A stretch of 64,000 nucleotides of DNA from Candidatus Limnocylindrales bacterium (GCA_036002405.1 DASYTK010000013.1:3459-67458); one strand, 5' to 3'. Positions 46,222-55,738 are shown, counted from the stretch's first letter. Translations and numbers: made by a program. Notes: generated from the sequence alone by a model not told the origin.

Positions 46222-46335
46222 CGGCGAGGTGAGCCATCCCGCGCGGGTGCGCGGCAGCGCCGGATCTTGGCGAGGTGAGCTCGGCCGAGCGGGCCCGGCC
46301 GGCGAGGGCTGTCCCGCGCGGGTGCCCGACTCGGA
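46222..46335. repeat. GC-rich imperfect-palindrome repeat family (GGCGAGG...CCCGCGCGGGTGC units); a second cluster lies at 45022-45100
   Basis: The exact 18-mer cgccggatcttggcgagg occurs at 45057-45074 and 46258-46275. ggctgtc(c)cgcgcgggtgccc units are present at both loci, flanking the regulator gene. Confidence 0.6.
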
Positions 46336-46580
46336 CTCTCATCGAGTTGACCCTCGACGCGGGGCGCCTCTACACTCGCGCCGCGGTCGTCGGATGCCGT
46401 CCATGTCCGGCGGCACGCGGCCGAACGAGCTTCGGAGGAGCGCTCCCGCAGTGGAGACCGGACCCAGTACGGTCGGCGCGCGACGCGCCGGCAAAAGCGA
46501 GGTCCGACCCGCCCCGTAGCCCGCCCGCGCCTCGGCGCCCGGGTCAGCGCACGGCGGGCGGACCGCCTGCGAGGTGGCCC

Positions 46581-47846
46581 ATGCTCTACCTCAGCCAGGT
46601 CATCGGCCGTCCCGTGCGCGACGGCCAGGGGGAGTCGATCGGGAAGGTCGCCGACCTGATCGTGGCGCTCGGCGATCGCTACCCGCCCGTCACCGGGCTC
46701 GTCGTGATGACCGACCGCCGGCGGATCTTCCTGCCCTGGTCGGACGTGGCCAGCTTCGACGCGTCGGGGGCGACGCTGGCGACCTCGATCATCGACATCG
46801 GGAAGTTCGCCCAGCGGCCGAACGAGCTGCTTCTCTTCCTCGACCTCCAGGACAAGCAGATCGTCGACCTCGACGGCCGCAAGGTCGTCCGGGTGAACGA
46901 CCTCGTCCTCGACGAGATCGAGGGCAAGCTCCATCTCGTCGCGGTGGACGTCGGTCCCGCCGGCCTGCTCCGTCGGCTCGGCGTCGAGGGACCGGTTCGG
47001 ACGCTGGCCCGGAACCTGGGGCGCTCGGTGCCCGAGCGATTCATCGACTGGGAGGACGTCGACCCGCTCGAGAGCTCGATCGCCTCGATCCGCCTGCGCG
47101 TCCCTCACCGCGGCCTGCGCGAGCTCCACCCGGCCGATCTCGCCGGGATCATCGACGAGCTGGCACCTCGAGATCGGGCCGGGATTCTGGCGACGCTGGA
47201 CGATGAGATCGCGGCCGATGCGATCGAGGAGATGGAGCCCGACACACAGGTCGAGGTCATGGAGGACCTGGCGCCGGAGCGGGCGGCCGACATCCTCGAG
47301 GAGATGAGCCCCGACGATGCCGCCGACCTGATCGCGGACCTGTCGGACACGGCGCGGGACCGGATCCTGCCGCTGATGGAACGCGAGGAGGCCGAGGAGG
47401 TGCAGGAGCTCCTGGGCTATCCCGAGGACAGCGCGGGCGGGATCATGACGACCGAGTACATCGGGATCCCGGCGACGCTCAAGGCGAGCGAGACGATCGA
47501 CCGGCTCCGCGAGCTCGAGCCGGACGCCGAGACGATCTACTACGTCTACGTCGTCGACGAGGCCGGCAAGCTGGTCGGCGTCCTCTCGCTCCGCGACCTG
47601 ATCGTCGCCCCGGCCGACGCGGTCGTGCGCGACTTCATGCTCGGCGAGCCCGTCGCCCTCGGAGTCCTCGCCGACCAGGAGGAGGTCGCCCGCGTCGTGG
47701 CTCGATACAACCTGCTCGCCGTTCCGGTCGTGGACGACGAGGGGCGGCTCGTGGGGATCGTCACAGTCGACGATGCGCTCGATACGGTATTGCCGACTGC
47801 CTGGAAGCGGCGGCTGCCCCGGGTCTTCAGCCGGGGCGGGGGCTGA
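46581..47846 (+). CDS. cytosolic PRC-barrel + MgtE-N + tandem-CBS protein (MgtE-like Mg2+-sensing module lacking the membrane domain)
   Basis: PRC-barrel-like VIGRPVRDGQGESIGKVADLIV, the acidic MgtE_N helical bundle, and a CBS pair (IYYVYVVDEAGKLVGVLSLRDL...VPVVDDEGRLVGIVTVDD). No TM segments. A GAGGTGG SD precedes ATG 46581. Confidence 0.75.
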   Translation: MLYLSQVIGRPVRDGQGESIGKVADLIVALGDRYPPVTGLVVMTDRRRIFLPWSDVASFDASGATLATSIIDIGKFAQRPNELLLFLDLQDKQIVDLDGRKVVRVNDLVLDEIEGKLHLVAVDVGPAGLLRRLGVEGPVRTLARNLGRSVPERFIDWEDVDPLESSIASIRLRVPHRGLRELHPADLAGIIDELAPRDRAGILATLDDEIAADAIEEMEPDTQVEVMEDLAPERAADILEEMSPDDAADLIADLSDTARDRILPLMEREEAEEVQELLGYPEDSAGGIMTTEYIGIPATLKASETIDRLRELEPDAETIYYVYVVDEAGKLVGVLSLRDLIVAPADAVVRDFMLGEPVALGVLADQEEVARVVARYNLLAVPVVDDEGRLVGIVTVDDALDTVLPTAWKRRLPRVFSRGGG

Positions 47847-49219
47847 TGCGGCTGCCGGCCGCCCCGGAGGGGGTCCGCCGTCGGGTGCGGGCGGCCGGCT
47901 CGGAGCTCGGGCCGCTCGCGCGATTCCGGGAGCGGATCGCGGCAGGCGACCTCTTGCGACTGCGTCCCCGCTTCCGAGGTCGGGGCCTGCTCGCGTTCCT
48001 CGCCGTCATGGGCCCCGGGCTGATCGCGGGCATCGCGGGGAACGAGGCGGGTGGCCTGACGACCTACTCGGTGCTCGGCGCCGAGACCGGCTTCCGGCTG
48101 CTCTGGCTGTTCCCCCTGACGACCGTCGTCCTGATGATCGTCCAGGAAATGGCCGCTCGGTTGGGCGTCGTCACCGGCCAGGGCCTCTCCGACCTCATCC
48201 GCGACTGGTTCGGGGTCCGCTGGACGGCGTTCGCGATGCTCGTCCTGTTCGTCGCGAACCTGGGCCAGACGATCGCCGAGTTCGCGGGAATCGCGGCCGC
48301 GCTCGAGATCTTCGGCCTGCCGCGGCTGCTCACCGTGCCCTTGACGGCGGTCGCCCTGTGGGCGCTCGTCCTCTTCGCGAGCTACCGGACCGTCGAGCGA
48401 GTCTTCCTGTCGGTCATCCTCGTCTTCGTCACGTACATCGTGTCGGCCTTCGTCAGCGGGCCGGACTGGGGAGAGGTGGGACGGGCGCTCGTCACGCCGA
48501 GCTTCGAGCTCGCTCCGGCGACGCTCCTGCTCATGGTCGCGCTCGTGGGCACGACGATCACGCCGTACATGCAGTTCTACCTCCAGTCGGCCGTCGCCGA
48601 GAAGGGGATCGACGAGGAGGAGCTCCGGCTGGAGCAGGCCGACGCGGTCGGAGGCGCGATCTGGACGAACGTCGTCGCGCTCTTCGTCGTCGTGGCCACG
48701 GCCCAGACGCTCCACGCGGCGGGGGTGCGGATCACGGACGCGGCCGACGCCGCGCAGGCGCTGGGACCCGTGGCCGGGGAGCTCTCGACCGCCCTCTTCG
48801 CGATCGGGCTCTTCGGAGCAAGCGTGCTGGCGGCGATGATCCTGCCGATCAGCACCTCGTTCGTCATCTGCGAGGCGTTCGGCTGGGAGTCCGGGGTCGG
48901 GAAGCCCTTCCGGGAAGCACCCGCCTTCTTCGGGATCTACACCGTGACCCTGTTCGCAGGTGCGGTGATCGTCCTCCTCCCCTTCCTGCCGCCGCTCATC
49001 GACGTCCTGCTCTTCACGCAGAACCTGCAGGGGTTGCTCCTGCCGATCGTGCTCGTGTTCATGTTCCGGCTGGTGAACAACGAGCGCCTGCTGGGTCGCC
49101 ACGTGAACGGCCCGATCCGGAACGCCTTGACGCTGGCGGCGATCGTGCTGGTCGTGGCCCTCGACGCGATCCTTCTAGGAGTCGGCGCGCTCGAGGCGAT
49201 CGGTCTTCGGCTCGGCTGA
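47846..49219 (+). CDS. NRAMP-family transporter with non-canonical metal-site residues (NRMT-like)
   Basis: About 11 TM segments. TM1 reads MGPGLIAGIAGNEAGGLTT, where EAGG replaces the canonical DPGN. TM6 reads GTTITPYMQFYLQS, where TPY replaces MPH. ATG overlaps the upstream stop (TGATG). Confidence 0.8.
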   Translation: MRLPAAPEGVRRRVRAAGSELGPLARFRERIAAGDLLRLRPRFRGRGLLAFLAVMGPGLIAGIAGNEAGGLTTYSVLGAETGFRLLWLFPLTTVVLMIVQEMAARLGVVTGQGLSDLIRDWFGVRWTAFAMLVLFVANLGQTIAEFAGIAAALEIFGLPRLLTVPLTAVALWALVLFASYRTVERVFLSVILVFVTYIVSAFVSGPDWGEVGRALVTPSFELAPATLLLMVALVGTTITPYMQFYLQSAVAEKGIDEEELRLEQADAVGGAIWTNVVALFVVVATAQTLHAAGVRITDAADAAQALGPVAGELSTALFAIGLFGASVLAAMILPISTSFVICEAFGWESGVGKPFREAPAFFGIYTVTLFAGAVIVLLPFLPPLIDVLLFTQNLQGLLLPIVLVFMFRLVNNERLLGRHVNGPIRNALTLAAIVLVVALDAILLGVGALEAIGLRLG

Positions 49220-49226
49220 GACGCGA

Positions 49227-49415
49227 CTACGGGATGAAGCTTCCGGCGTCTCCGTCCGGAACGGCCCCGATCTTCTCGGTCAGCTCCTCCACGGTGCCGT
49301 GCCTGATCAGCTCCGGGCGGACGTACGGCTCGCGGGGAGGCGCGGCGGCGCCCTTCGTACCCGCGTCCTCCAGCCCGAGGCTGGCGGTCGCGCTCTCTGG
49401 CGTTCGGGTCTCCAT
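49227..49415 (-). CDS. candidate lasso-peptide precursor (62 aa; leader with YxxPxLxxxG motif, predicted core KIGAVPDGDAGSFIP)
   Basis: Small ORF translationally coupled to the cyclase (stop/start ATGA at 49424-49427), with a second ATG preceded by an AGGAG SD. The leader ...EPYVRPELIRHGTVEELTE matches the Y-x2-P-x-L-x3-G-x5-T-x motif bound by PqqD-like RREs. Confidence 0.5.
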   Translation of the reverse strand: METRTPESATASLGLEDAGTKGAAAPPREPYVRPELIRHGTVEELTEKIGAVPDGDAGSFIP

Positions 49416-49423
49416 CGATCTCC

Positions 49424-51370
49424 TCATGCCTGATCGGCCAGTTCGGCGTCGTGGCCATTGTCCACCGCCGGCGCAAGAGCCGCAGCGCTCGCCAGCGTCC
49501 GACGGCGGAGCGTTCGCGCTTCCATCCAGGCCTCGACGGCAACCGCGTTGATCACTCGTGGATCCAGGTCCCTTCGGTTCCGTCGATACGCCGCCCAGGC
49601 CGACCAGAGACCGGCCGGATCGGCGAGGACCGCCCTCGATGCGACGAATCCGCTGAGCAGGCGCTCGATCCGCGGCGCTTCGTGTTCGAGCAGGCCTCGC
49701 TCCACGAGGTCGGTGATCGTCGCCTTGGTCGTGCGTAAGCGGATCGTCTCCGGCAGCAGCCCGATCATCGCCTCCCTCAGCACTGCCCGCCCCCATCCGG
49801 CTCGATAGAGGACGGGCCGCGGCAGGTTGAGCGTGAAATCGACGAGGCGCCGGTCGAGGAACGGAAAGCGCCACTCGACCCCGGCATGACTCGCAAGCTC
49901 GTAGAACTCGACCCGGTACCAGGCTGTGAGGCCGTTGTGGAGACCTTCGTAGGCCAGTCTCGCGGCCCGGGTCCGGAGGGGCGGGGCCGGGAGCGGGTCG
50001 ACGAAGGATTCCGAGCGCGGCTGGGCGGGACGCAACCCGTTCCGACGCCTGCTCCGCCTGAGCCGCCCCAGGGAGGCCCGCAGCCGCGGCGCGAGGCTCG
50101 CCCGCACCGATTCGCGTGCCAGGATCCGGAGGCCCCGGCGCCGGGAGAGCCGCCAGAAGTGCGGAAGCTCAACGGCGAAGTCGCGCAGCGACACGTCTCG
50201 CCAGAGGCGCGGAGCCAGGTGGTACGGCGTGGAGACGAGGATCTCGTCGCCTCCGTGGCCGCTCAACAGGACCCGCAACCCGTCGGCGTGGGCGGCCCGA
50301 AGCGCGCCCACCGAGAGCGCCCGGAACATGAACGGGTCGGGCTCGGGCAGTGGATATCCGGCGTCGTCGCCGAATTCGCGGAGCGCCCATCGGTCGTCGC
50401 TCGGGATCAGCGTGATCGGGCTACCAGGCAGGCACTCGAGGAGCGCGTCGAGGTAGCGCCGCTCGTCGGCGGCGGGCGAGCGTTCGTACACGTAGGAGTA
50501 GAGCCGAGGGGCAGGGACGGCGCCCTCGTCGCTGGCGCGGCCGGCGAGCGCCGCGATCGCTGACGAGTCGAGCCCGCCGCTGACTTTGATCGCCACCGGT
50601 CCGACGCTGCGGAGCCGGGCGCGCACCGCCAGGTCGAGGAGATCCCCGAACCGCTCGACGTAGTCGTGCTCGGAGCGGAGGGGCTGCTCGACCTGCGCGC
50701 CAGAGATCCAGAACCGTCGCAGTCCCACCTCGCCGTCGGCGGCTTGCAACTGATAGCCCTGCGGCAGCCGCGAGATGGGCCGGTAGGCGGTCTCGGTCGT
50801 CCATCGATCCCACTCGCCGAGGACGATCTCGGCGAGGAGCGGCTCGTTCAGCGGTGCGTCGCCGCCGAGGCCGGCAAGGACGGCGTCGACGCCAGAGGCG
50901 AAGACGAGGAGTGACCCGTGGCGCGCGTAGTAGAGCGTCCGGATCCCGGCTGGATCTCGCGCGCAGAGCAGGCGACCGGCGATCGAGTCCCAGAGCCCGA
51001 AGGCGAAGTCGCCGATCAGGTGGGTCGGACAGTCGCTGCCCCACCGCTGATAGGCGGCCAGGATGAGCTGCGCGTCGCTGGGAATGCCGGGCGGCAGGTA
51101 CCCGGCCAGGATCGGCAGCAGCTCTTCCCGGTTGTCGATCCGCGCGTCGGCCGCGACGCAGACGTGCCCGCCGTGGCCCACGAGGGGCTGACGCTCGCCG
51201 AGCTCCTCGGGGGTCGTCCACGAATGGGCATGGATGAGCGCGACGTGCCCCCTGCTCCACCGGTCGATCCCGTCCGGGCCCCGGTGGCGCAATGCTTCGG
51301 TCAGGCTGGCAAGCAGGCTGGGGTCGACCGGCTGACCGGTCAGGTCCAGGAGCCCTGCGATCGCACTCAT
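49424..51370 (-). CDS. lasso-peptide cyclase (asparagine-synthetase-like, C protein)
   Basis: AsnB-like fold with N-terminal MSAIAGLL lacking the catalytic Cys (MCGI to MSAI). PP-loop region SGGLDSSAIAA. ATG at 51370 overlaps the stop of the upstream gene (ATGA). Confidence 0.8.
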   Translation of the reverse strand: MSAIAGLLDLTGQPVDPSLLASLTEALRHRGPDGIDRWSRGHVALIHAHSWTTPEELGERQPLVGHGGHVCVAADARIDNREELLPILAGYLPPGIPSDAQLILAAYQRWGSDCPTHLIGDFAFGLWDSIAGRLLCARDPAGIRTLYYARHGSLLVFASGVDAVLAGLGGDAPLNEPLLAEIVLGEWDRWTTETAYRPISRLPQGYQLQAADGEVGLRRFWISGAQVEQPLRSEHDYVERFGDLLDLAVRARLRSVGPVAIKVSGGLDSSAIAALAGRASDEGAVPAPRLYSYVYERSPAADERRYLDALLECLPGSPITLIPSDDRWALREFGDDAGYPLPEPDPFMFRALSVGALRAAHADGLRVLLSGHGGDEILVSTPYHLAPRLWRDVSLRDFAVELPHFWRLSRRRGLRILARESVRASLAPRLRASLGRLRRSRRRNGLRPAQPRSESFVDPLPAPPLRTRAARLAYEGLHNGLTAWYRVEFYELASHAGVEWRFPFLDRRLVDFTLNLPRPVLYRAGWGRAVLREAMIGLLPETIRLRTTKATITDLVERGLLEHEAPRIERLLSGFVASRAVLADPAGLWSAWAAYRRNRRDLDPRVINAVAVEAWMEARTLRRRTLASAAALAPAVDNGHDAELADQA

Positions 51371-52599
51371 CGAACGGCCCGGACGCGGCCGGGGAGCGCG
51401 AGGAGCCGGGGGACGTACTTCCTCGTGAGACGAAGGGGGCGGATGGCACGATAGGCGATGGGCAGGCGTCGAGCGCCCGGCAGGGCATCCCAATCGCCGC
51501 GGGTGGGCGTCGACAACGCGGCCCAGACGAGCGCCACGCGGTCGCGCGCCCGTTCCCGGACCTGGAGGTCGAACCGTTCGAGGCCCTCGAACAGGCGATC
51601 GTCGCGTCCGCGCCCGCCCTCCATGAGACGAGCGTCGATCCACTCCGCCAGGCGTCCGGCCGTGGCATCCCTCGCCATGTTGGCCGCCACCTCGGGCGGG
51701 ATCGTCGCGCCCCCGATCGTCTCGGCCAGACGCAACGCGATGGCAAGGATCCGATTGATCCCCTCTCTCCGCGCCCGGACCACAACGCGATCCCAGTCGA
51801 GGAAGGGCTCGGCTGCGATGAGCGCGGCGACGTCGGCGATCCAGGCCAGCCGTCCCCAGCGGTGCTTCGTCCCGTGGATAGCGAGTGCGAGCAGCAGGTC
51901 ATCGAGCGCCAGGTCATTGACCGGCACACCGCCGAGCGAGGTCACCCGCAGGCGCTCCCAGATCGATTCGGCGTCGAAGCCGCGGGAGTAGTAGGTGGGC
52001 ACGACAGTCCAGTGGATCTCGACGAAGGCCCTGCGACCGGGCGCCTGGAGCTGCACCTCACCGATCCGCTCGAGGTAGGCGCTCTCCTGCCAGTCCGGAA
52101 GCGGGTGGAACCGCTCGTAGCCGCGCTCGAGCAGGAGTCCGACGGATTCGGCGATCCGGCCCCGCGGCACGATGATGTCGAGATCACCGAACTGGCGCAG
52201 GCCGAGGTCACCGTAGGCGGACAGGGCGAGGAGGGGCCCCTTCCAGGGGACGGCCGGGATGCCCGCCTCGGCGAACGTCGCCAGGATCTCCATGAGGCGA
52301 CCGGTCAGGGCGAGGTTCCGATCGGCGATCGCCCGCGCCCTGGTCGCGATCGCAACGGCCGCGTCCGGAGGAACGAGCCCGCCCCAGCCCGCCGCCGCCC
52401 GAGCCAGGAGAGGGACCAGCGCGTGTCTCTCCGCGGCAGCCAGCAGACCCGTCCAGTCGAGCCCGCGCGCCTCGGCCGGCGTGACCGAGGGCGGATCGGC
52501 GGGGAAGCGAGCCAGCGCGCGGAGGATCGTCGGCTCGCCTGAGACTGCCTCGGGCGTCCGATCCGCGGGAACCGCCGAAACTCCCGCCGCCATCGTCAT
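51367..52599 (-). CDS. nucleotidyltransferase-family protein of the lasso cluster (putative tailoring enzyme)
   Basis: Minimal-NTase motif GPLLALSAYGDLGLRQFGDLDIIVP. ATGA overlaps on both sides. Confidence 0.65.
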   Translation of the reverse strand: MTMAAGVSAVPADRTPEAVSGEPTILRALARFPADPPSVTPAEARGLDWTGLLAAAERHALVPLLARAAAGWGGLVPPDAAVAIATRARAIADRNLALTGRLMEILATFAEAGIPAVPWKGPLLALSAYGDLGLRQFGDLDIIVPRGRIAESVGLLLERGYERFHPLPDWQESAYLERIGEVQLQAPGRRAFVEIHWTVVPTYYSRGFDAESIWERLRVTSLGGVPVNDLALDDLLLALAIHGTKHRWGRLAWIADVAALIAAEPFLDWDRVVVRARREGINRILAIALRLAETIGGATIPPEVAANMARDATAGRLAEWIDARLMEGGRGRDDRLFEGLERFDLQVRERARDRVALVWAALSTPTRGDWDALPGARRLPIAYRAIRPLRLTRKYVPRLLALPGRVRAVR

Positions 52600-53552
52600 G
52601 CCGGATCCTGGGCGACGATCCGCACCGCTTCGTCGAGCCGCGTCAGGTCACGCGGTCGCCGCAGCCGATCGATCGGGACCCCGGAGACGACCCTGGCGCA
52701 CTGGCCGAGGTGCTCCCCGGCGGTCCCGGAATCGAGCAGGACGCGGGCAAGGAACGAGTGCCGCACGAGCTCCGCGATCGCATCGAGCGAAGCGATCCGC
52801 TCCCTCTCGACGCGGCGCCCCTCCGCGAGGACGTGGATCGCGGCCAGGGGAAAGGGCCTCTCCCCCGCCGGCTCGATCGGCCGGCCGCGTTTCTGGCGCG
52901 CGAAACCGAGAGGAACCACCGCCCGGTCCTCCTCGCCCAGGAAGGTGGCGGCCGCAGGGGTGAGCTTCAGCATCGGAACTCCCGGATGAAGCACCGGGGA
53001 GCCCGCGGCGATCTCGATCGCGGCGAGATCGTCGGTGAGCACCGTCATCCCGGCACGCCGACAGGCGGCGGCGAGCGTCGACTTGCCGGCGCCGGGTTGG
53101 CCGAGGAACAGGTGGGCCCGCCCGGCCATCAGGATCCCGCTCGCGTGCAGGGCCAGGTGGCCGCGCTGATGAAGGAGAAAGGCGAGCCCGGGACCGAGGA
53201 TCATCGCCCGCAGCTGCTCCCCCGACGCGCCGGGCGCCGCCTCGACGACGATCTCGCGGCCGGCCTTCACCTCGAGGGCGCCGATCCCGTCGTAGACGAG
53301 GCGGGCGAGGTCCCTCTCCACCCGTCGCCGCCCCATCCTGAGCGACATCGGGATCATGTGCTCGTCGTGTTCGAGAGTCCCGCGCCGGACGGTCGCGACC
53401 GGATCGCCCGCCACCGGATGAAGCTCGGGCAGAGGCAGCTCCGAATCGAAGATCACGCCGTAGGCCCGATAGCGCCGGTCGGCCGCGCCGATCTCGGACC
53501 TGTGGCCCTCAGATCGCGTTGGCGATGCGCGATTCCACCGATACCGACCCAT
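52596..53552 (-). CDS. HPr-kinase-related (HprK-like) serine kinase of the lasso cluster
   Basis: HprK C-domain P-loop GILMAGRAHLFLGQPGAGKSTLAAACRRAGMTVLTDD. N-terminal RYRAYGVIFDSELPLPEL resembles lasso tailoring kinases. Start uncertain (ATG 53552, GTG 53591 or GTG about 53458). Confidence 0.65.
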   Translation of the reverse strand: MGRYRWNRASPTRSEGHRSEIGAADRRYRAYGVIFDSELPLPELHPVAGDPVATVRRGTLEHDEHMIPMSLRMGRRRVERDLARLVYDGIGALEVKAGREIVVEAAPGASGEQLRAMILGPGLAFLLHQRGHLALHASGILMAGRAHLFLGQPGAGKSTLAAACRRAGMTVLTDDLAAIEIAAGSPVLHPGVPMLKLTPAAATFLGEEDRAVVPLGFARQKRGRPIEPAGERPFPLAAIHVLAEGRRVERERIASLDAIAELVRHSFLARVLLDSGTAGEHLGQCARVVSGVPIDRLRRPRDLTRLDEAVRIVAQDPA

Positions 53553-53979
53553 CGCTCCTTCCCGACTCACGACGAAGCTGGGTAAAGGCACGCCGCTCTT
53601 CTCCGCCGACCACGATCGTCTCGCCTGCCATCACCCATGCGTGCGCCCTGAGTCGCTCGCCCGGGGAACGCGCCACCCCGATCTGAAGCTCGCTGGGGAC
53701 TCCCGAGCGAGCCAGGAGCAGCTGTGCGGCAAAGGCCTGCGTGAGGCAGCTCGCGCCCGGTACGACGCGGCTTGCGGCGCGCACCGCCCAGCCCACCCTG
53801 GCCACGTCGATCGGGGCACGTCCACTCGTGGCGCGCGATCGGCCGAGCACGAACGCGTGGACCCGACGGAACGAGAGCAGCGGCAGGACGGCACGAGTCG
53901 ATGCGACCGCGATCAACGCCTGGAGCACCAGTCTCCGATCGGCCATCGACAGGCCGAGGAACCTACGCAGCCTCGCCAT
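53509..53979 (-). CDS. lasso-peptide leader peptidase B2 (transglutaminase-like Cys protease)
   Basis: Catalytic-Cys region ASCLTQAFAAQLLLARSGVPSELQIGV and a His region LRAHAWVMAGE. Overlaps B1 by 17 nt. Confidence 0.75.
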   Translation of the reverse strand: MARLRRFLGLSMADRRLVLQALIAVASTRAVLPLLSFRRVHAFVLGRSRATSGRAPIDVARVGWAVRAASRVVPGASCLTQAFAAQLLLARSGVPSELQIGVARSPGERLRAHAWVMAGETIVVGGEERRAFTQLRRESGRSDGSVSVESRIANAI

Positions 53980-54283
53980 CGCCCCGTCGGGCGCCAGGGG
54001 CCTCGGTCTGGATGAGTCCCTGGCCGTTCAATTCCGTCATGAGGGCGATGAGATCGGCTTCGCAGCGCTCCGGCTCGACGTCGTACTCGCCGACGATCGT
54101 GTCCCGGATCTCGCGCACCGACCGGCGGCGCTCGAGGAGGCGCCAGATCCGGGCACCCACCCGGTTGAGCCCGTAGTAGACCCCGGCGTCCAGGTCGAGC
54201 AAGGCCGCCTCGCCGGAGAGATCGGCCGAGACCACGCGCGGCGTGGCCCAGACGACCGTGTCGAGCGTCATGTCCACGGGCAC
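53963..54283 (-). CDS. lasso-peptide B1 protein (PqqD-like RiPP recognition element)
   Basis: 106 aa with GEAALLDLDAGVYYGLNRVGARIWRLL....CEADLIALMTELNGQGLI, the canonical PqqD/RRE pattern. Confidence 0.8.
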   Translation of the reverse strand: MPVDMTLDTVVWATPRVVSADLSGEAALLDLDAGVYYGLNRVGARIWRLLERRRSVREIRDTIVGEYDVEPERCEADLIALMTELNGQGLIQTEAPGARRGDGEAA

Positions 54284-54307: not shown

Positions 54308-55738
54308 TCAGCCCACGTGCTCGCCGGTCCCCCGCTCGACCGGATAGCCGGCTGCGCGCCACGAGGGCACGCCACCGCTGACCCACCCGACCCGCTCGAA
54401 GCCGGCCTGGCGGAGCAGGCTCGCGGCGACGGACGAGCGATAGCCCGAGGCACAGATGGTCACGATCGGCCGGTCGCGAGGCAGCCGATCGAGCCGCTCC
54501 GGGAGGTCGCCCGCCATCAGGTGGACGGAACCGGGGATGTGGGCTCGCTCGAACTCGTCGCGCTGGCGGACGTCGAGGATGAGCGGTCCCCGTCCATTCG
54601 CGGCCGGGACGTCACGCTCCCCGGTAGCGAGCAGGTCGTGGAGTTCGCCGACCGTGAACCGGCCGCTCGCCTCGACCGGCCCGCCCGAGCCCTGCCAGGC
54701 TTCAAAGCCCCCGTGCAGGTAGCCTTCGATGCCCTCGTATCCGATCCGCAGCGCCTGGCGGACCGCGTCGTCCCACTCCGCGGTCGAGGCGAGAAGCAGG
54801 ATGAGCGGCCGGTCGTGGGGCACGACCCAGCCAAGCCACGTCCCGAACGAGCTGCCGGCGGGGATCGAGATCGAGCCCGGGACGTGCGCGAGGATGTGCT
54901 CGGCCGGGCTGCGCAGGTCGACCAGGAGATGATCACCCGCCAGGAGCTCACGCACCCGGTCCACCGGCAGCGGCTGGGCCTCGGGCAGGCGCCCGATCGG
55001 GCGTGGCCCCTGCTGGTTGATCGGCCGCATCCGGGCGAAGTACCGGGGATAGGCGGGCTGGTCGGCCAGGAGCGTCCGGACGAAGGTCTCGACGTCCTCG
55101 ATCGCCAGCAGGCCGTCGTGCCGCCGCTCGTAGCCGAGCGTGCTCCAGGGCGTCGAGGCGATCGACTTCGAGCAGAGCGACCCGCCGCCGTGGGTCGGAT
55201 AGATCGCCACATGATCGGGGTGGGGAAGGATCCGCTCGTGGAGCGAGGCGTGCATCTGGCGTGCGAATGACTCCGCGTTTTCCGCGCCGAGCAGATCCGT
55301 CCGTCCGACCGCGCCCACGAGCAGAGACCCACCCGTGAACATCAGGAGCGGCTCGTCGGCCCGACTCCGGTCGGCCACGGCATAGCAGACGTGCTCAGGC
55401 GTATGGCCCGGCGTCTCGAGCGTCGTGAAGCGGATCGAGCCCACGTCGAAGGCGTCTCCCTGCCGCAGGGCCTGGTACGGCTGCGCGAGGTCGGCCCCTG
55501 CGCCGATCACGTGCCGGGCGCCGGTGAGCTCGACGAGCTCGCGGGCACCGGAGACGTAGTCGTTGTGCAGGTGCGTCTCGGCGACGTGGCTGATCCGGAG
55601 CCCCCGCTCACGCGCGGCGTCGAGGTAGACGTCGACGTCACGGCGCGGATCGACGACCGCGGCGATCCCCTGGGTCTCGTCCGCGACGAGCGCGCTGATA
55701 TGGCCAAGGCCCGGGACGACGAACTGCCGCAGGTCCAT
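54308..55738 (-). CDS. MBL-fold metallo-hydrolase fused to two rhodanese domains (persulfide-dioxygenase/sulfurtransferase-like)
   Basis: N-terminal HxHxDx motif ETHLHNDYVSG plus downstream metal ligands. C-terminal rhodanese with active-site loop ICASGYRSS. Ends 24 bp before the lasso B1 start on the same strand. Confidence 0.7.
   Translation of the reverse strand: MDLRQFVVPGLGHISALVADETQGIAAVVDPRRDVDVYLDAARERGLRISHVAETHLHNDYVSGARELVELTGARHVIGAGADLAQPYQALRQGDAFDVGSIRFTTLETPGHTPEHVCYAVADRSRADEPLLMFTGGSLLVGAVGRTDLLGAENAESFARQMHASLHERILPHPDHVAIYPTHGGGSLCSKSIASTPWSTLGYERRHDGLLAIEDVETFVRTLLADQPAYPRYFARMRPINQQGPRPIGRLPEAQPLPVDRVRELLAGDHLLVDLRSPAEHILAHVPGSISIPAGSSFGTWLGWVVPHDRPLILLLASTAEWDDAVRQALRIGYEGIEGYLHGGFEAWQGSGGPVEASGRFTVGELHDLLATGERDVPAANGRGPLILDVRQRDEFERAHIPGSVHLMAGDLPERLDRLPRDRPIVTICASGYRSSVAASLLRQAGFERVGWVSGGVPSWRAAGYPVERGTGEHVG

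Follow-up and report, generated by a model that had tools for sequence, protein, structure and literature searches.

What kind of peptide is made by six closely packed genes in a member of the Chloroflexota, and what would a kinase and a nucleotidyltransferase (NTase) encoded among them add to it? The genes lie on the minus strand of a 64,000-nucleotide stretch of DNA, here called the window (GCA_036002405.1 DASYTK010000013.1:3459-67458), from a Candidatus Limnocylindrales metagenome-assembled genome (MAG; class Candidatus Limnocylindria, Chloroflexota) and with a uniform G+C content of about 70-73%. They form six consecutive open reading frames (ORFs) at 49227-54283, which were called and read from the sequence in the order B1-B2-K-N-C-A. 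As judged from this sequence, the locus holds a precursor peptide (A), a recognition element (B1), a leader peptidase (B2) and a cyclase (C) together with a kinase (K) and an NTase (N), with intact motifs, coupled genes and no exporter. We propose, with a probability of roughly 80%, that it is a complete class II lasso-peptide operon and that its product would be a Lys1-Asp7 lasso, phosphorylated on Ser12 and perhaps extended at the phosphate by the NTase. An earlier, sequence-only reading of the window had placed a six-gene lasso operon with an HprK-like kinase and an NTase at these positions. All six ORFs are found there, and the assignment has been borne out by hidden Markov models (HMMs), motifs, predicted folds and about 90 related loci; the phospho- or glyco-tailoring that it considered probable is likewise supported by protein families, motifs, folds and relatives.

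The proteins expected of a lasso-peptide pathway are all encoded. B1 (53963-54283; 106 residues from GTG 54283, with other starts at GTG 54277 and ATG 54271) is a PqqD-like recognition element of ribosomally synthesised and post-translationally modified peptide (RiPP) pathways, matched by PF05402 (PqqD) at 2.8e-19 and by NF033536 (lasso_PqqD) at 2.5e-17 and 62.8 bits, under the curated cut-off of 80. B2 (53509-53979, 156 residues) is a transglutaminase-like lasso leader peptidase, which matches PF13471 at 7.7e-24 and exceeds the cut-off of NF033537 (lasso_biosyn_B2) with 86.9 bits against 33, and has Cys78 and His113, the latter in a HAW motif, as its catalytic residues. The large ORF C (49424-51370, 648 residues) contains GATase_7, GATase_6 and PF00733 Asn_synthase (2.8e-39) domains, the content that would also suit a genuine glutamine-dependent asparagine synthetase in a neighbourhood that is no RiPP cluster. 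We consider this extremely improbable. The best NCBIfam model is the lasso cyclase NF033535 (6.7e-115, 385 bits, under its curated cut-off of 525), against 199 bits for the Asn-synthetase model TIGR01536 and 113 bits for AsnB NF006949 (cut-off 499). Moreover, a catalytic N-terminal Cys, which the sequence-only reading had named as the mark of a true asparagine synthetase, is replaced in the N-terminus MSAIAG by Ser at residue 2, where AsnB has its nucleophilic Cys, and the neighbouring genes encode B1, B2 and a precursor with a lasso leader motif. On these three grounds a true asparagine synthetase was rejected. The PP-loop SGGLDS is retained at residue 264, and by its sequence C is a lasso macrolactam cyclase of the Asn-synthetase-like type in which the Cys nucleophile of the glutaminase is missing.

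The kinase K (52596-53552, 318 residues) is an HprK-like (PEPCK-fold) P-loop peptide kinase. As a single sequence it gives weak HprK-related matches, with TIGR04352 (HprK-related kinase A) at 2.3e-9, and falls below the cut-offs of both PF07475 and TIGR04352, so that among the four Pfam families that the sequence-only reading had expected, PF05402, PF13471 and PF00733 were matched and the kinase alone stayed under its cut-off. A profile of the kinase family, however, matches the catalytic domain of the HprK/P structure 1jb1 (E=1.1e-7). The AlphaFold (AF2) model has a predicted local distance difference test score (pLDDT) of 88.6, and its Foldseek matches include ATP-dependent PEPCK, at about 1e-6, as well as HprK/P, with values of 6e-5 to 5e-4; PEPCK and HprK/P belong to one common fold superfamily. 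In an alignment of 30 sequences, the window kinase and 29 homologues of 33-43% identity, H136, K157, D174 and D175 are invariant. The full motif, H136-x14-G151-x2-G154-x-G156-K157-S158-x15-D174-D175, has a spacing identical to that of BsfK, H148-G163-G166-G168-K169-S170-D186-D187 (PMC10368454), and its His-Lys-Asp-Asp residues are essential by mutagenesis in paeninodin-type kinases (PMC9266682). The NCBI record of the kinase has 286 residues and begins at GTG 53456, 32 codons later than ATG 53552. The latter start is preceded by the Shine-Dalgarno sequence GGAAGGAG, keeps the near-invariant Tyr28 and restores the Y-x-A-Y-G N-terminal strand conserved in homologues. From these sequence features, the kinase most plausibly begins at ATG 53552 and, because of the strong Shine-Dalgarno sequence and the restored strand, the public annotation is probably truncated at the N-terminus. 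More than 470 kinase homologues are present in the protein database, and the closest relative (43% identity) is encoded in the order C-B1-B2-K-N, with a B2/K/N block that overlaps as in the window.

The sequence-only reading also held that all junctions between the six genes overlap, and this stands for four of them: B1 and B2 overlap by 17 nt, and K/N, N/C and C/A each share an ATGA. Between B2 and K, an overlap of 44 nt depends on a kinase start at ATG 53552; with the NCBI start there is a 52-nt gap instead. The precursor A (49227-49415) has 62 residues if translated from ATG 49415 or 66 residues from the ATGA start at 49427. ATG 49415 lies 8 nt past the cyclase stop and hence differs from the ATGA start; it follows an AGGAGA Shine-Dalgarno sequence, is the start used in NCBI and Logan, and may be where translation of the precursor begins. 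The six genes are probably co-translated as one operon. In public records, the proteins have exact matches on a 71-kb contig of the MAG, and the locus tags run from VGQ47_01325 for the precursor, a 'hypothetical protein', to VGQ47_01340 for the kinase.

The leader of the precursor (49275-49415) includes YVRPELIRHGTVEELTE, with the motif YxxPxLx3Gx5Tx, and scores 18.9 bits against NF033521 (lasso_leader_L3; cut-off 19). It is the sole leader-motif ORF within the window, in which no second precursor was found. The lasso leader rule, with Thr at -2, predicts cleavage after Thr(-2)-Glu(-1) and yields the core KIGAVPDGDAGSFIP (49230-49274), in agreement with the 15-residue core of the sequence-only reading. 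The codons for Lys1 (49272-49274), Asp7 (49254-49256), Asp9 (49248-49250), Ser12 (49239-49241) and Phe13 (49236-49238) mark the residues on which the structure of the product would depend. The core contains no Ser, Thr or Tyr besides Ser12, which lies three residues from its C-terminus, the peptide ending in GSFIP without a C-terminal Ser. A precursor profile built from 11 precursors retrieved 66 metagenome proteins, of which the best 53 were analysed. The pattern K-x-G-x3-[DE]-x-[DE]-x(0-4)-G-S-F fits 52 of these 53; the window precursor thus belongs to a family, as yet uncharacterised, with at least 52 members. Within this family Gly-Ser-Phe has an invariant Ser, while its Phe is present in at least 46 of 52, a Pro stands two residues beyond Phe in 42 of the best 53, and a C-terminal Ser occurs in 3/53. 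The tail past Phe varies from 2 to 16 residues; in the window peptide nothing follows GSFIP. As an observation in its own right, the core Lys is invariant in P0121-P0173 and yet 0, 1 or 2 residues from the cleavage site; since this distance from Thr(-2) varies, the conservation of Lys is not explained by its N-terminal position.

The same family bears on which acidic residue closes the ring. Known lasso rings have 7-9 residues. The core Lys occupies position 1 (33 members), 2 (12) or 3 (7), and never a later one, and an acid at K+6 therefore gives a ring of 7, 8 or 9 residues throughout. In the alternative that the operon makes a Lys1-Asp9 ring of 9 residues with a 6-residue tail, AGSFIP, the window peptide would also stay inside the known range, and the acid at K+8 is present in 51/52 members, three of which (P0170, P0172 and P0173) have the second Asp only. 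As a ring residue, however, K+8 would require 10- or 11-residue rings in the 19 members with Lys at 2 or 3, and such rings are unknown; P0171 keeps the first Asp alone, and a 6-residue tail would leave just AGS as the loop before Phe13. Because K+6 always falls within the 7-9 range, K+8 needs the larger rings in 19 members and P0171 has only the first Asp, the sequences favour a Lys1-Asp7 macrolactam by about two to one, and we regard the Asp9 ring as rather unlikely.

The residue on which the kinase would act is the point at which the window departs most from systems of the PadeK type. PadeK, ThcoK, SyanK and PsmK (poly)phosphorylate, on its side chain, the Ser at the C-terminus of the linear precursor, and a C-terminal Ser has been described as a conserved trait of kinase-associated precursors (PMC9266682, PMC8498205, PMC6993621). 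The window precursor has none, which is the main departure from those systems and had been missed in the sequence-only reading. BsfK, in contrast, phosphorylates Ser3 within the ring, aided by B1 (PMC10368454), and B1-assisted phosphorylation of the linear precursor prior to cleavage has been established for PadeK, ThcoK and BsfK (PMC9266682, PMC10368454). As the C-terminal Ser of the PadeK-type rule is missing, we infer, rather than read off, that Ser12 is the phosphosite. It could be argued that the kinase and NTase act away from the core, with the leader or some other substrate of the cell as their target or with a function in immunity or regulation, and that the product is an unmodified lasso peptide; the C-terminal Ser needed by the characterised PadeK-type kinases is absent, and the leader offers several Ser and Thr residues. 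Against this, the genes for K and N stand inside the operon, flanked by those for B2 and C and joined through ATGA or overlapping junctions, and the kinase is present on every long-enough contig with a precursor of this family (the window, L049, L052, L055, L059 and L082-L085). In addition, the core Gly-Ser-Phe is conserved as described above, Ser12 is the only hydroxyl residue in the window core, and BsfK provides a precedent for a non-terminal core Ser as target (PMC10368454). We therefore give action away from the core little credence and retain phosphorylation of Ser12 as the preferred reading.

The NTase N (51367-52599, 410 residues) belongs to PF14907 (NTP_transf_5), 'uncharacterised nucleotidyltransferase' (3.4e-53), and its K120, R135 and D139-x-D141 are invariant among 14 homologues; the gene surroundings of its closest homologues (L087-L089) contributed little. 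A sequence search of the PDB gave no significant match, and the predicted fold alone was informative: the AF2 model (pLDDT 82.8) has as its top Foldseek matches the ANT(2'')-Ia structures 5cfu, 4wqk, 5cfs and 4xje (template modelling score about 0.62 on the target, E 1e-3 to 1e-2), with LnuA and the FKRP catalytic domain also among the best. D139 and D141 form the same DxD pattern as D134 and D136 of PsmN, in which a D134A/D136A substitution abolishes activity, and 5cfs and 4xje are fold templates common to both, having also served Zyubko et al. for PsmN (PMC6993621). PsmN is required for the addition of one or two hexoses to the phosphate of pseudomycoidin (+162, +324 Da) (PMC6993621), and by analogy the window NTase is predicted perhaps to add a hexose to the phosphate. 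A different outcome, in which the enzyme adds a non-hexose phosphodiester group, either by nucleotidylating Ser12 or its phosphate (AMP, UMP) or by a LicD/FKRP-like phospho-alcohol transfer from an NDP-activated donor, is suggested by the fold, which resembles nucleotidyltransferases (ANT(2'')-Ia, LnuA) and phospho-alcohol transferases such as the ribitol-phosphate transferase FKRP and not glycosyltransferases. PsmN itself might, according to its authors, make a substrate for host glycosyltransferases, and its in vitro activity and mechanism have not been established in the literature (PMC6993621, PMC11912497). The sole experimental datum, however, is the PsmN-dependent shift of +162/+324 Da on phosphorylated pseudomycoidin, with no nucleotidylated species reported (PMC6993621), and we view a non-hexose group as possible but the less probable result.

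Taken as a pathway, the preferred reading would begin with the binding of B1 to the YxxPxL leader, whereupon the kinase, with the help of B1, would phosphorylate Ser12 on the linear precursor. B2 would then cut after Thr(-2)-Glu(-1), and the cyclase would adenylate Asp7 and join it to the alpha-amine of Lys1, creating a 7-residue macrolactam. The tail GDAGSFIP would thread this ring, with phospho-Ser12 and Phe13 flanking it as plugs, and subsequently the NTase would extend the phosphate, by a hexose if PsmN is a guide. A bulky phospho-glycosyl group as a possible lock has been suggested by Zyubko et al. (PMC6993621); the conserved Ser-Phe pair of the window peptide is suitably positioned to straddle the ring, in keeping with this suggestion, but a phospho-glycosyl lock is speculation. 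More tentatively still, and with odds that we would put well below even, we hypothesize that the window represents a distinct and widespread class, in which the kinase phosphorylates the tail-internal Ser of Gly-Ser-Phe beside a Phe plug, and not a C-terminal or in-ring Ser, and in this cluster the coupled NTase extends it, the resulting bulky, anionic phospho(glyco)serine acting as the upper steric lock for the unusually small Lys1-Asp7 ring and the invariant Lys having a separate role, in target binding or in a salt bridge to the phosphate.

Several points weigh against the proposal. It has been built from the sequence of a MAG alone, the best-established substrate rule for such kinases, a C-terminal Ser, does not describe the window precursor, and the best-scoring models for B1, C and A all remain below their NCBIfam curated cut-offs. 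With respect to the ring, P0170, P0172 and P0173 (3/52) have Gly at K+6, Asp9 would equally permit a 9-residue ring in the window peptide, and we know of no characterised lasso peptide with Lys at position 1. As to the NTase, none was found in the other loci of the precursor family, so its substrate is unsupported by co-occurrence, and PsmN-type catalysis is not settled in the literature (PMC6993621, PMC11912497).

Among characterised systems, the pseudomycoidin cluster psmCAKB1B2ND of Bacillus pseudomycoides (PMC6993621) is like the window in its split B1 and B2, cyclase, HprK-like kinase and PF14907-type NTase with DxD, and it yields a disulfide-free lasso peptide of class II, as is predicted for the window. 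It has an exporter D and the order C-A-K-B1-B2-N-D, whereas the window has no D and the order B1-B2-K-N-C-A; pseudomycoidin is phosphorylated on the C-terminal Ser and has an Ala1-Glu9 ring, as opposed to a Ser three residues from the end and a predicted Lys1-Asp7 ring. The paeninodin (pade), ThcoK and SyanK systems (PMC9266682, PMC8498205) share with the window a split B1/B2 and a His-Lys-Asp-Asp kinase acting on the linear precursor. However, their kinases recognise the C-terminal Ser that the window precursor lacks, and the pade cluster has an exporter and no NTase. The bsf cluster of Bradymonas sediminis, A-B1-B2-C-D-K-N (PMC10368454), resembles the window in coming from a non-Firmicute, in having both K and N and in its phosphosite, which is not C-terminal, as predicted here, and whose phosphorylation is stimulated by B1. 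It differs in its in-ring target Ser3, Ile(-2) and an ABC (ATP-binding cassette) exporter, compared with a predicted tail Ser12, the canonical Thr(-2) and no exporter in the window. The sequence-only reading had treated the K-NTase pair as a trait of Firmicutes, a view that does not hold: the bsf cluster shows the gene set to be already known outside this phylum, a lasso kinase has also been reported in Sphingobium (PMC8498205), and kinases of this kind occur in many phyla. The gene set is known and widespread, and the window adds one more variant, itself uncharacterised, to a type of RiPP cluster already described.

The breadth of this kind became apparent from a scan for kinase relatives, in which one genome per species left 80 loci. 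B1, B2 and C stand beside the kinase in nearly all 80, with small leader-motif ORFs, and the kinase is thus found next to lasso genes in about 80 species of a dozen phyla, including Chloroflexota, Cyanobacteria, Acidobacteriota, Rokubacteria, Binatia, Planctomycetota, Verrucomicrobiota and archaeal Methanothrix MAGs. In the relatives, B1-B2-C-A-K usually comes first, with an ABC transporter and N after it. A precursor 3' of the cyclase, which had at first appeared unusual, is thus the commonest arrangement, and the peculiarity of the window lies in the placement of K-N between B2 and C. The absence of an exporter had been seen as a second peculiarity. It is correct for the window, where no real ORF contains the ABC signature motif and a scan of ten neighbouring ORFs in the interval 36.7-64 kb gave no ABC Pfam match, but it is frequent among relatives whose precursors lack a C-terminal Ser. 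Counts were made over 66 genome loci with a recognisable precursor, some on short contigs, so that absences are upper bounds. Where the precursor ends in Ser (33 loci), an ABC gene lies nearby in 31 and K and N are directly adjacent in 2; where it does not (33 loci), the corresponding numbers are 14 and 10, the exporter being absent in 19/33. Exporter absence and direct K-N coupling thus go with precursors that lack a C-terminal Ser. The window has all three of these minority traits, which sets its subtype apart from the paeninodin/pseudomycoidin type; no experimental study of this subtype was found in the searched literature. In many relatives a gap of about 2 kb separates K and N, and glycosyltransferases were considered as its content; this was rejected, as most loci have the ABC transporter there, a GT2 pair being confined to four Hydrogenedentes loci.

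The nearest matches to the window core come from Anaerolineales and metagenome clusters, namely four Anaerolineales loci with window-type cores (L049, L052, L055 and L059) together with L082-L085. They resemble the window in their cores, K-x-G-x3-D-x-D...G-S-F-x-P, in B1, B2, C and kinase, and in the lack of an ABC exporter. Their order is B1-B2-C-A-K with 1-5 copies of A and no NTase found, in contrast to the single precursor and NTase of the window, and their cores are mostly extended beyond GSFxP, where the window core ends at GSFIP. Four to five tandem, diverged precursor copies lie between cyclase and kinase in L059 (6774-7769), L055 (5389-6392) and L082 (4700-5473). L082 (144-1979), L083 (5374-7248) and L084 (2214-4088) encode, translationally coupled upstream of B1, an S9 peptidase that has a Tricorn-like beta-propeller and is absent from the window, L049, L052, L055 and L059. 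Tested as an AtxE2-type lasso isopeptidase, it gave generic S9/acylaminoacyl peptidases as PDB sequence matches; it may act as a lasso isopeptidase or as an enzyme that trims, post-proline, the variable extension after GSFxP.

Few systems that make phosphorylated or phosphoglycosylated lasso peptides have been characterised, and the operon offers a compact test case: its six genes are coupled, an exporter is lacking and the 15-residue core has one hydroxyl residue. Because of this single residue, a kinase- or NTase-dependent mass shift could be assigned unambiguously. The combination of genes is not surprising, and what is new is modest. Judging by the searched literature, no Chloroflexota lasso peptide has been characterised before; the product would be the first, and also the first of its precursor family. 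Its value would lie in a handle on tail-internal Ser phosphorylation and PsmN-type chemistry and in a representative of a precursor family of uncultured Chloroflexota. In addition, the rule of a C-terminal Ser in kinase-associated precursors applies to just about half of such clusters in genomes.

Other relatives of the kinase lie in clusters of a different composition. The Hydrogenedentes/Hydrogenedentota loci L069, L075, L076 and L078 (for instance L078 6870-13872) have the order B1-B2-A-K-GT2-GT2-N-ABC, and no Asn-synthetase-like cyclase was found within 8 kb either side of them. Their precursors combine a lasso-type leader with Pro-rich cores of 8-10 residues (LIPPVSPI, LLPSPVSP, QPPPGSPSLP); as these contain no Asp or Glu, a lasso macrolactam is impossible, and the clusters may constitute a cyclase-less, leader-guided class of phospho/glyco-peptide RiPPs. 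Cyclase-like ORFs were likewise not detected, also with an HMM from 40 cyclases, in the full +/-8-kb span of L053 (Phycisphaerales), L058, L060, L068, L009 and L050. All six carry the kinase and most of them, L050 excepted, also B1, B2 or N; of the four tandem precursors in L053, one, VIPIGGGSGLPVPK, is without an acidic residue. Kinase homologues are also found in archaeal MAGs, namely L040 (Euryarchaeota archaeon, 2.6-Mb chromosome) and L044 and L050 (both Methanothrix). In L040 and L044 the kinase occurs together with B1, B2, C and lasso-type precursors, which suggests kinase-associated lasso clusters in methanogens.

The genes flanking the window operon are unrelated to it. A scan of 48.8-56.2 kb for sigma-70 promoters and intrinsic terminators returned nothing beyond shuffled expectation and is uninformative in the case of this high-GC Chloroflexota DNA. 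Upstream, the same strand (54308-55738, minus) encodes a protein of metallo-beta-lactamase fold that is persulfide-dioxygenase-like and has two rhodanese-domain matches. Its gene stops 24 nt before B1; the gene may be co-transcribed with the operon, and no counterpart accompanies the related clusters. On the other side, an Nramp transporter gene (47846-49219, plus strand) converges with the operon, leaving 7 nt between the stop codons. It is preceded, within 46233-49219 on the plus strand, by a gene for a PRC-barrel, MgtE_N and CBS protein that ends at 47846, where the Nramp gene starts, which suggests that the two form a coupled, regulated divalent-metal uptake pair.

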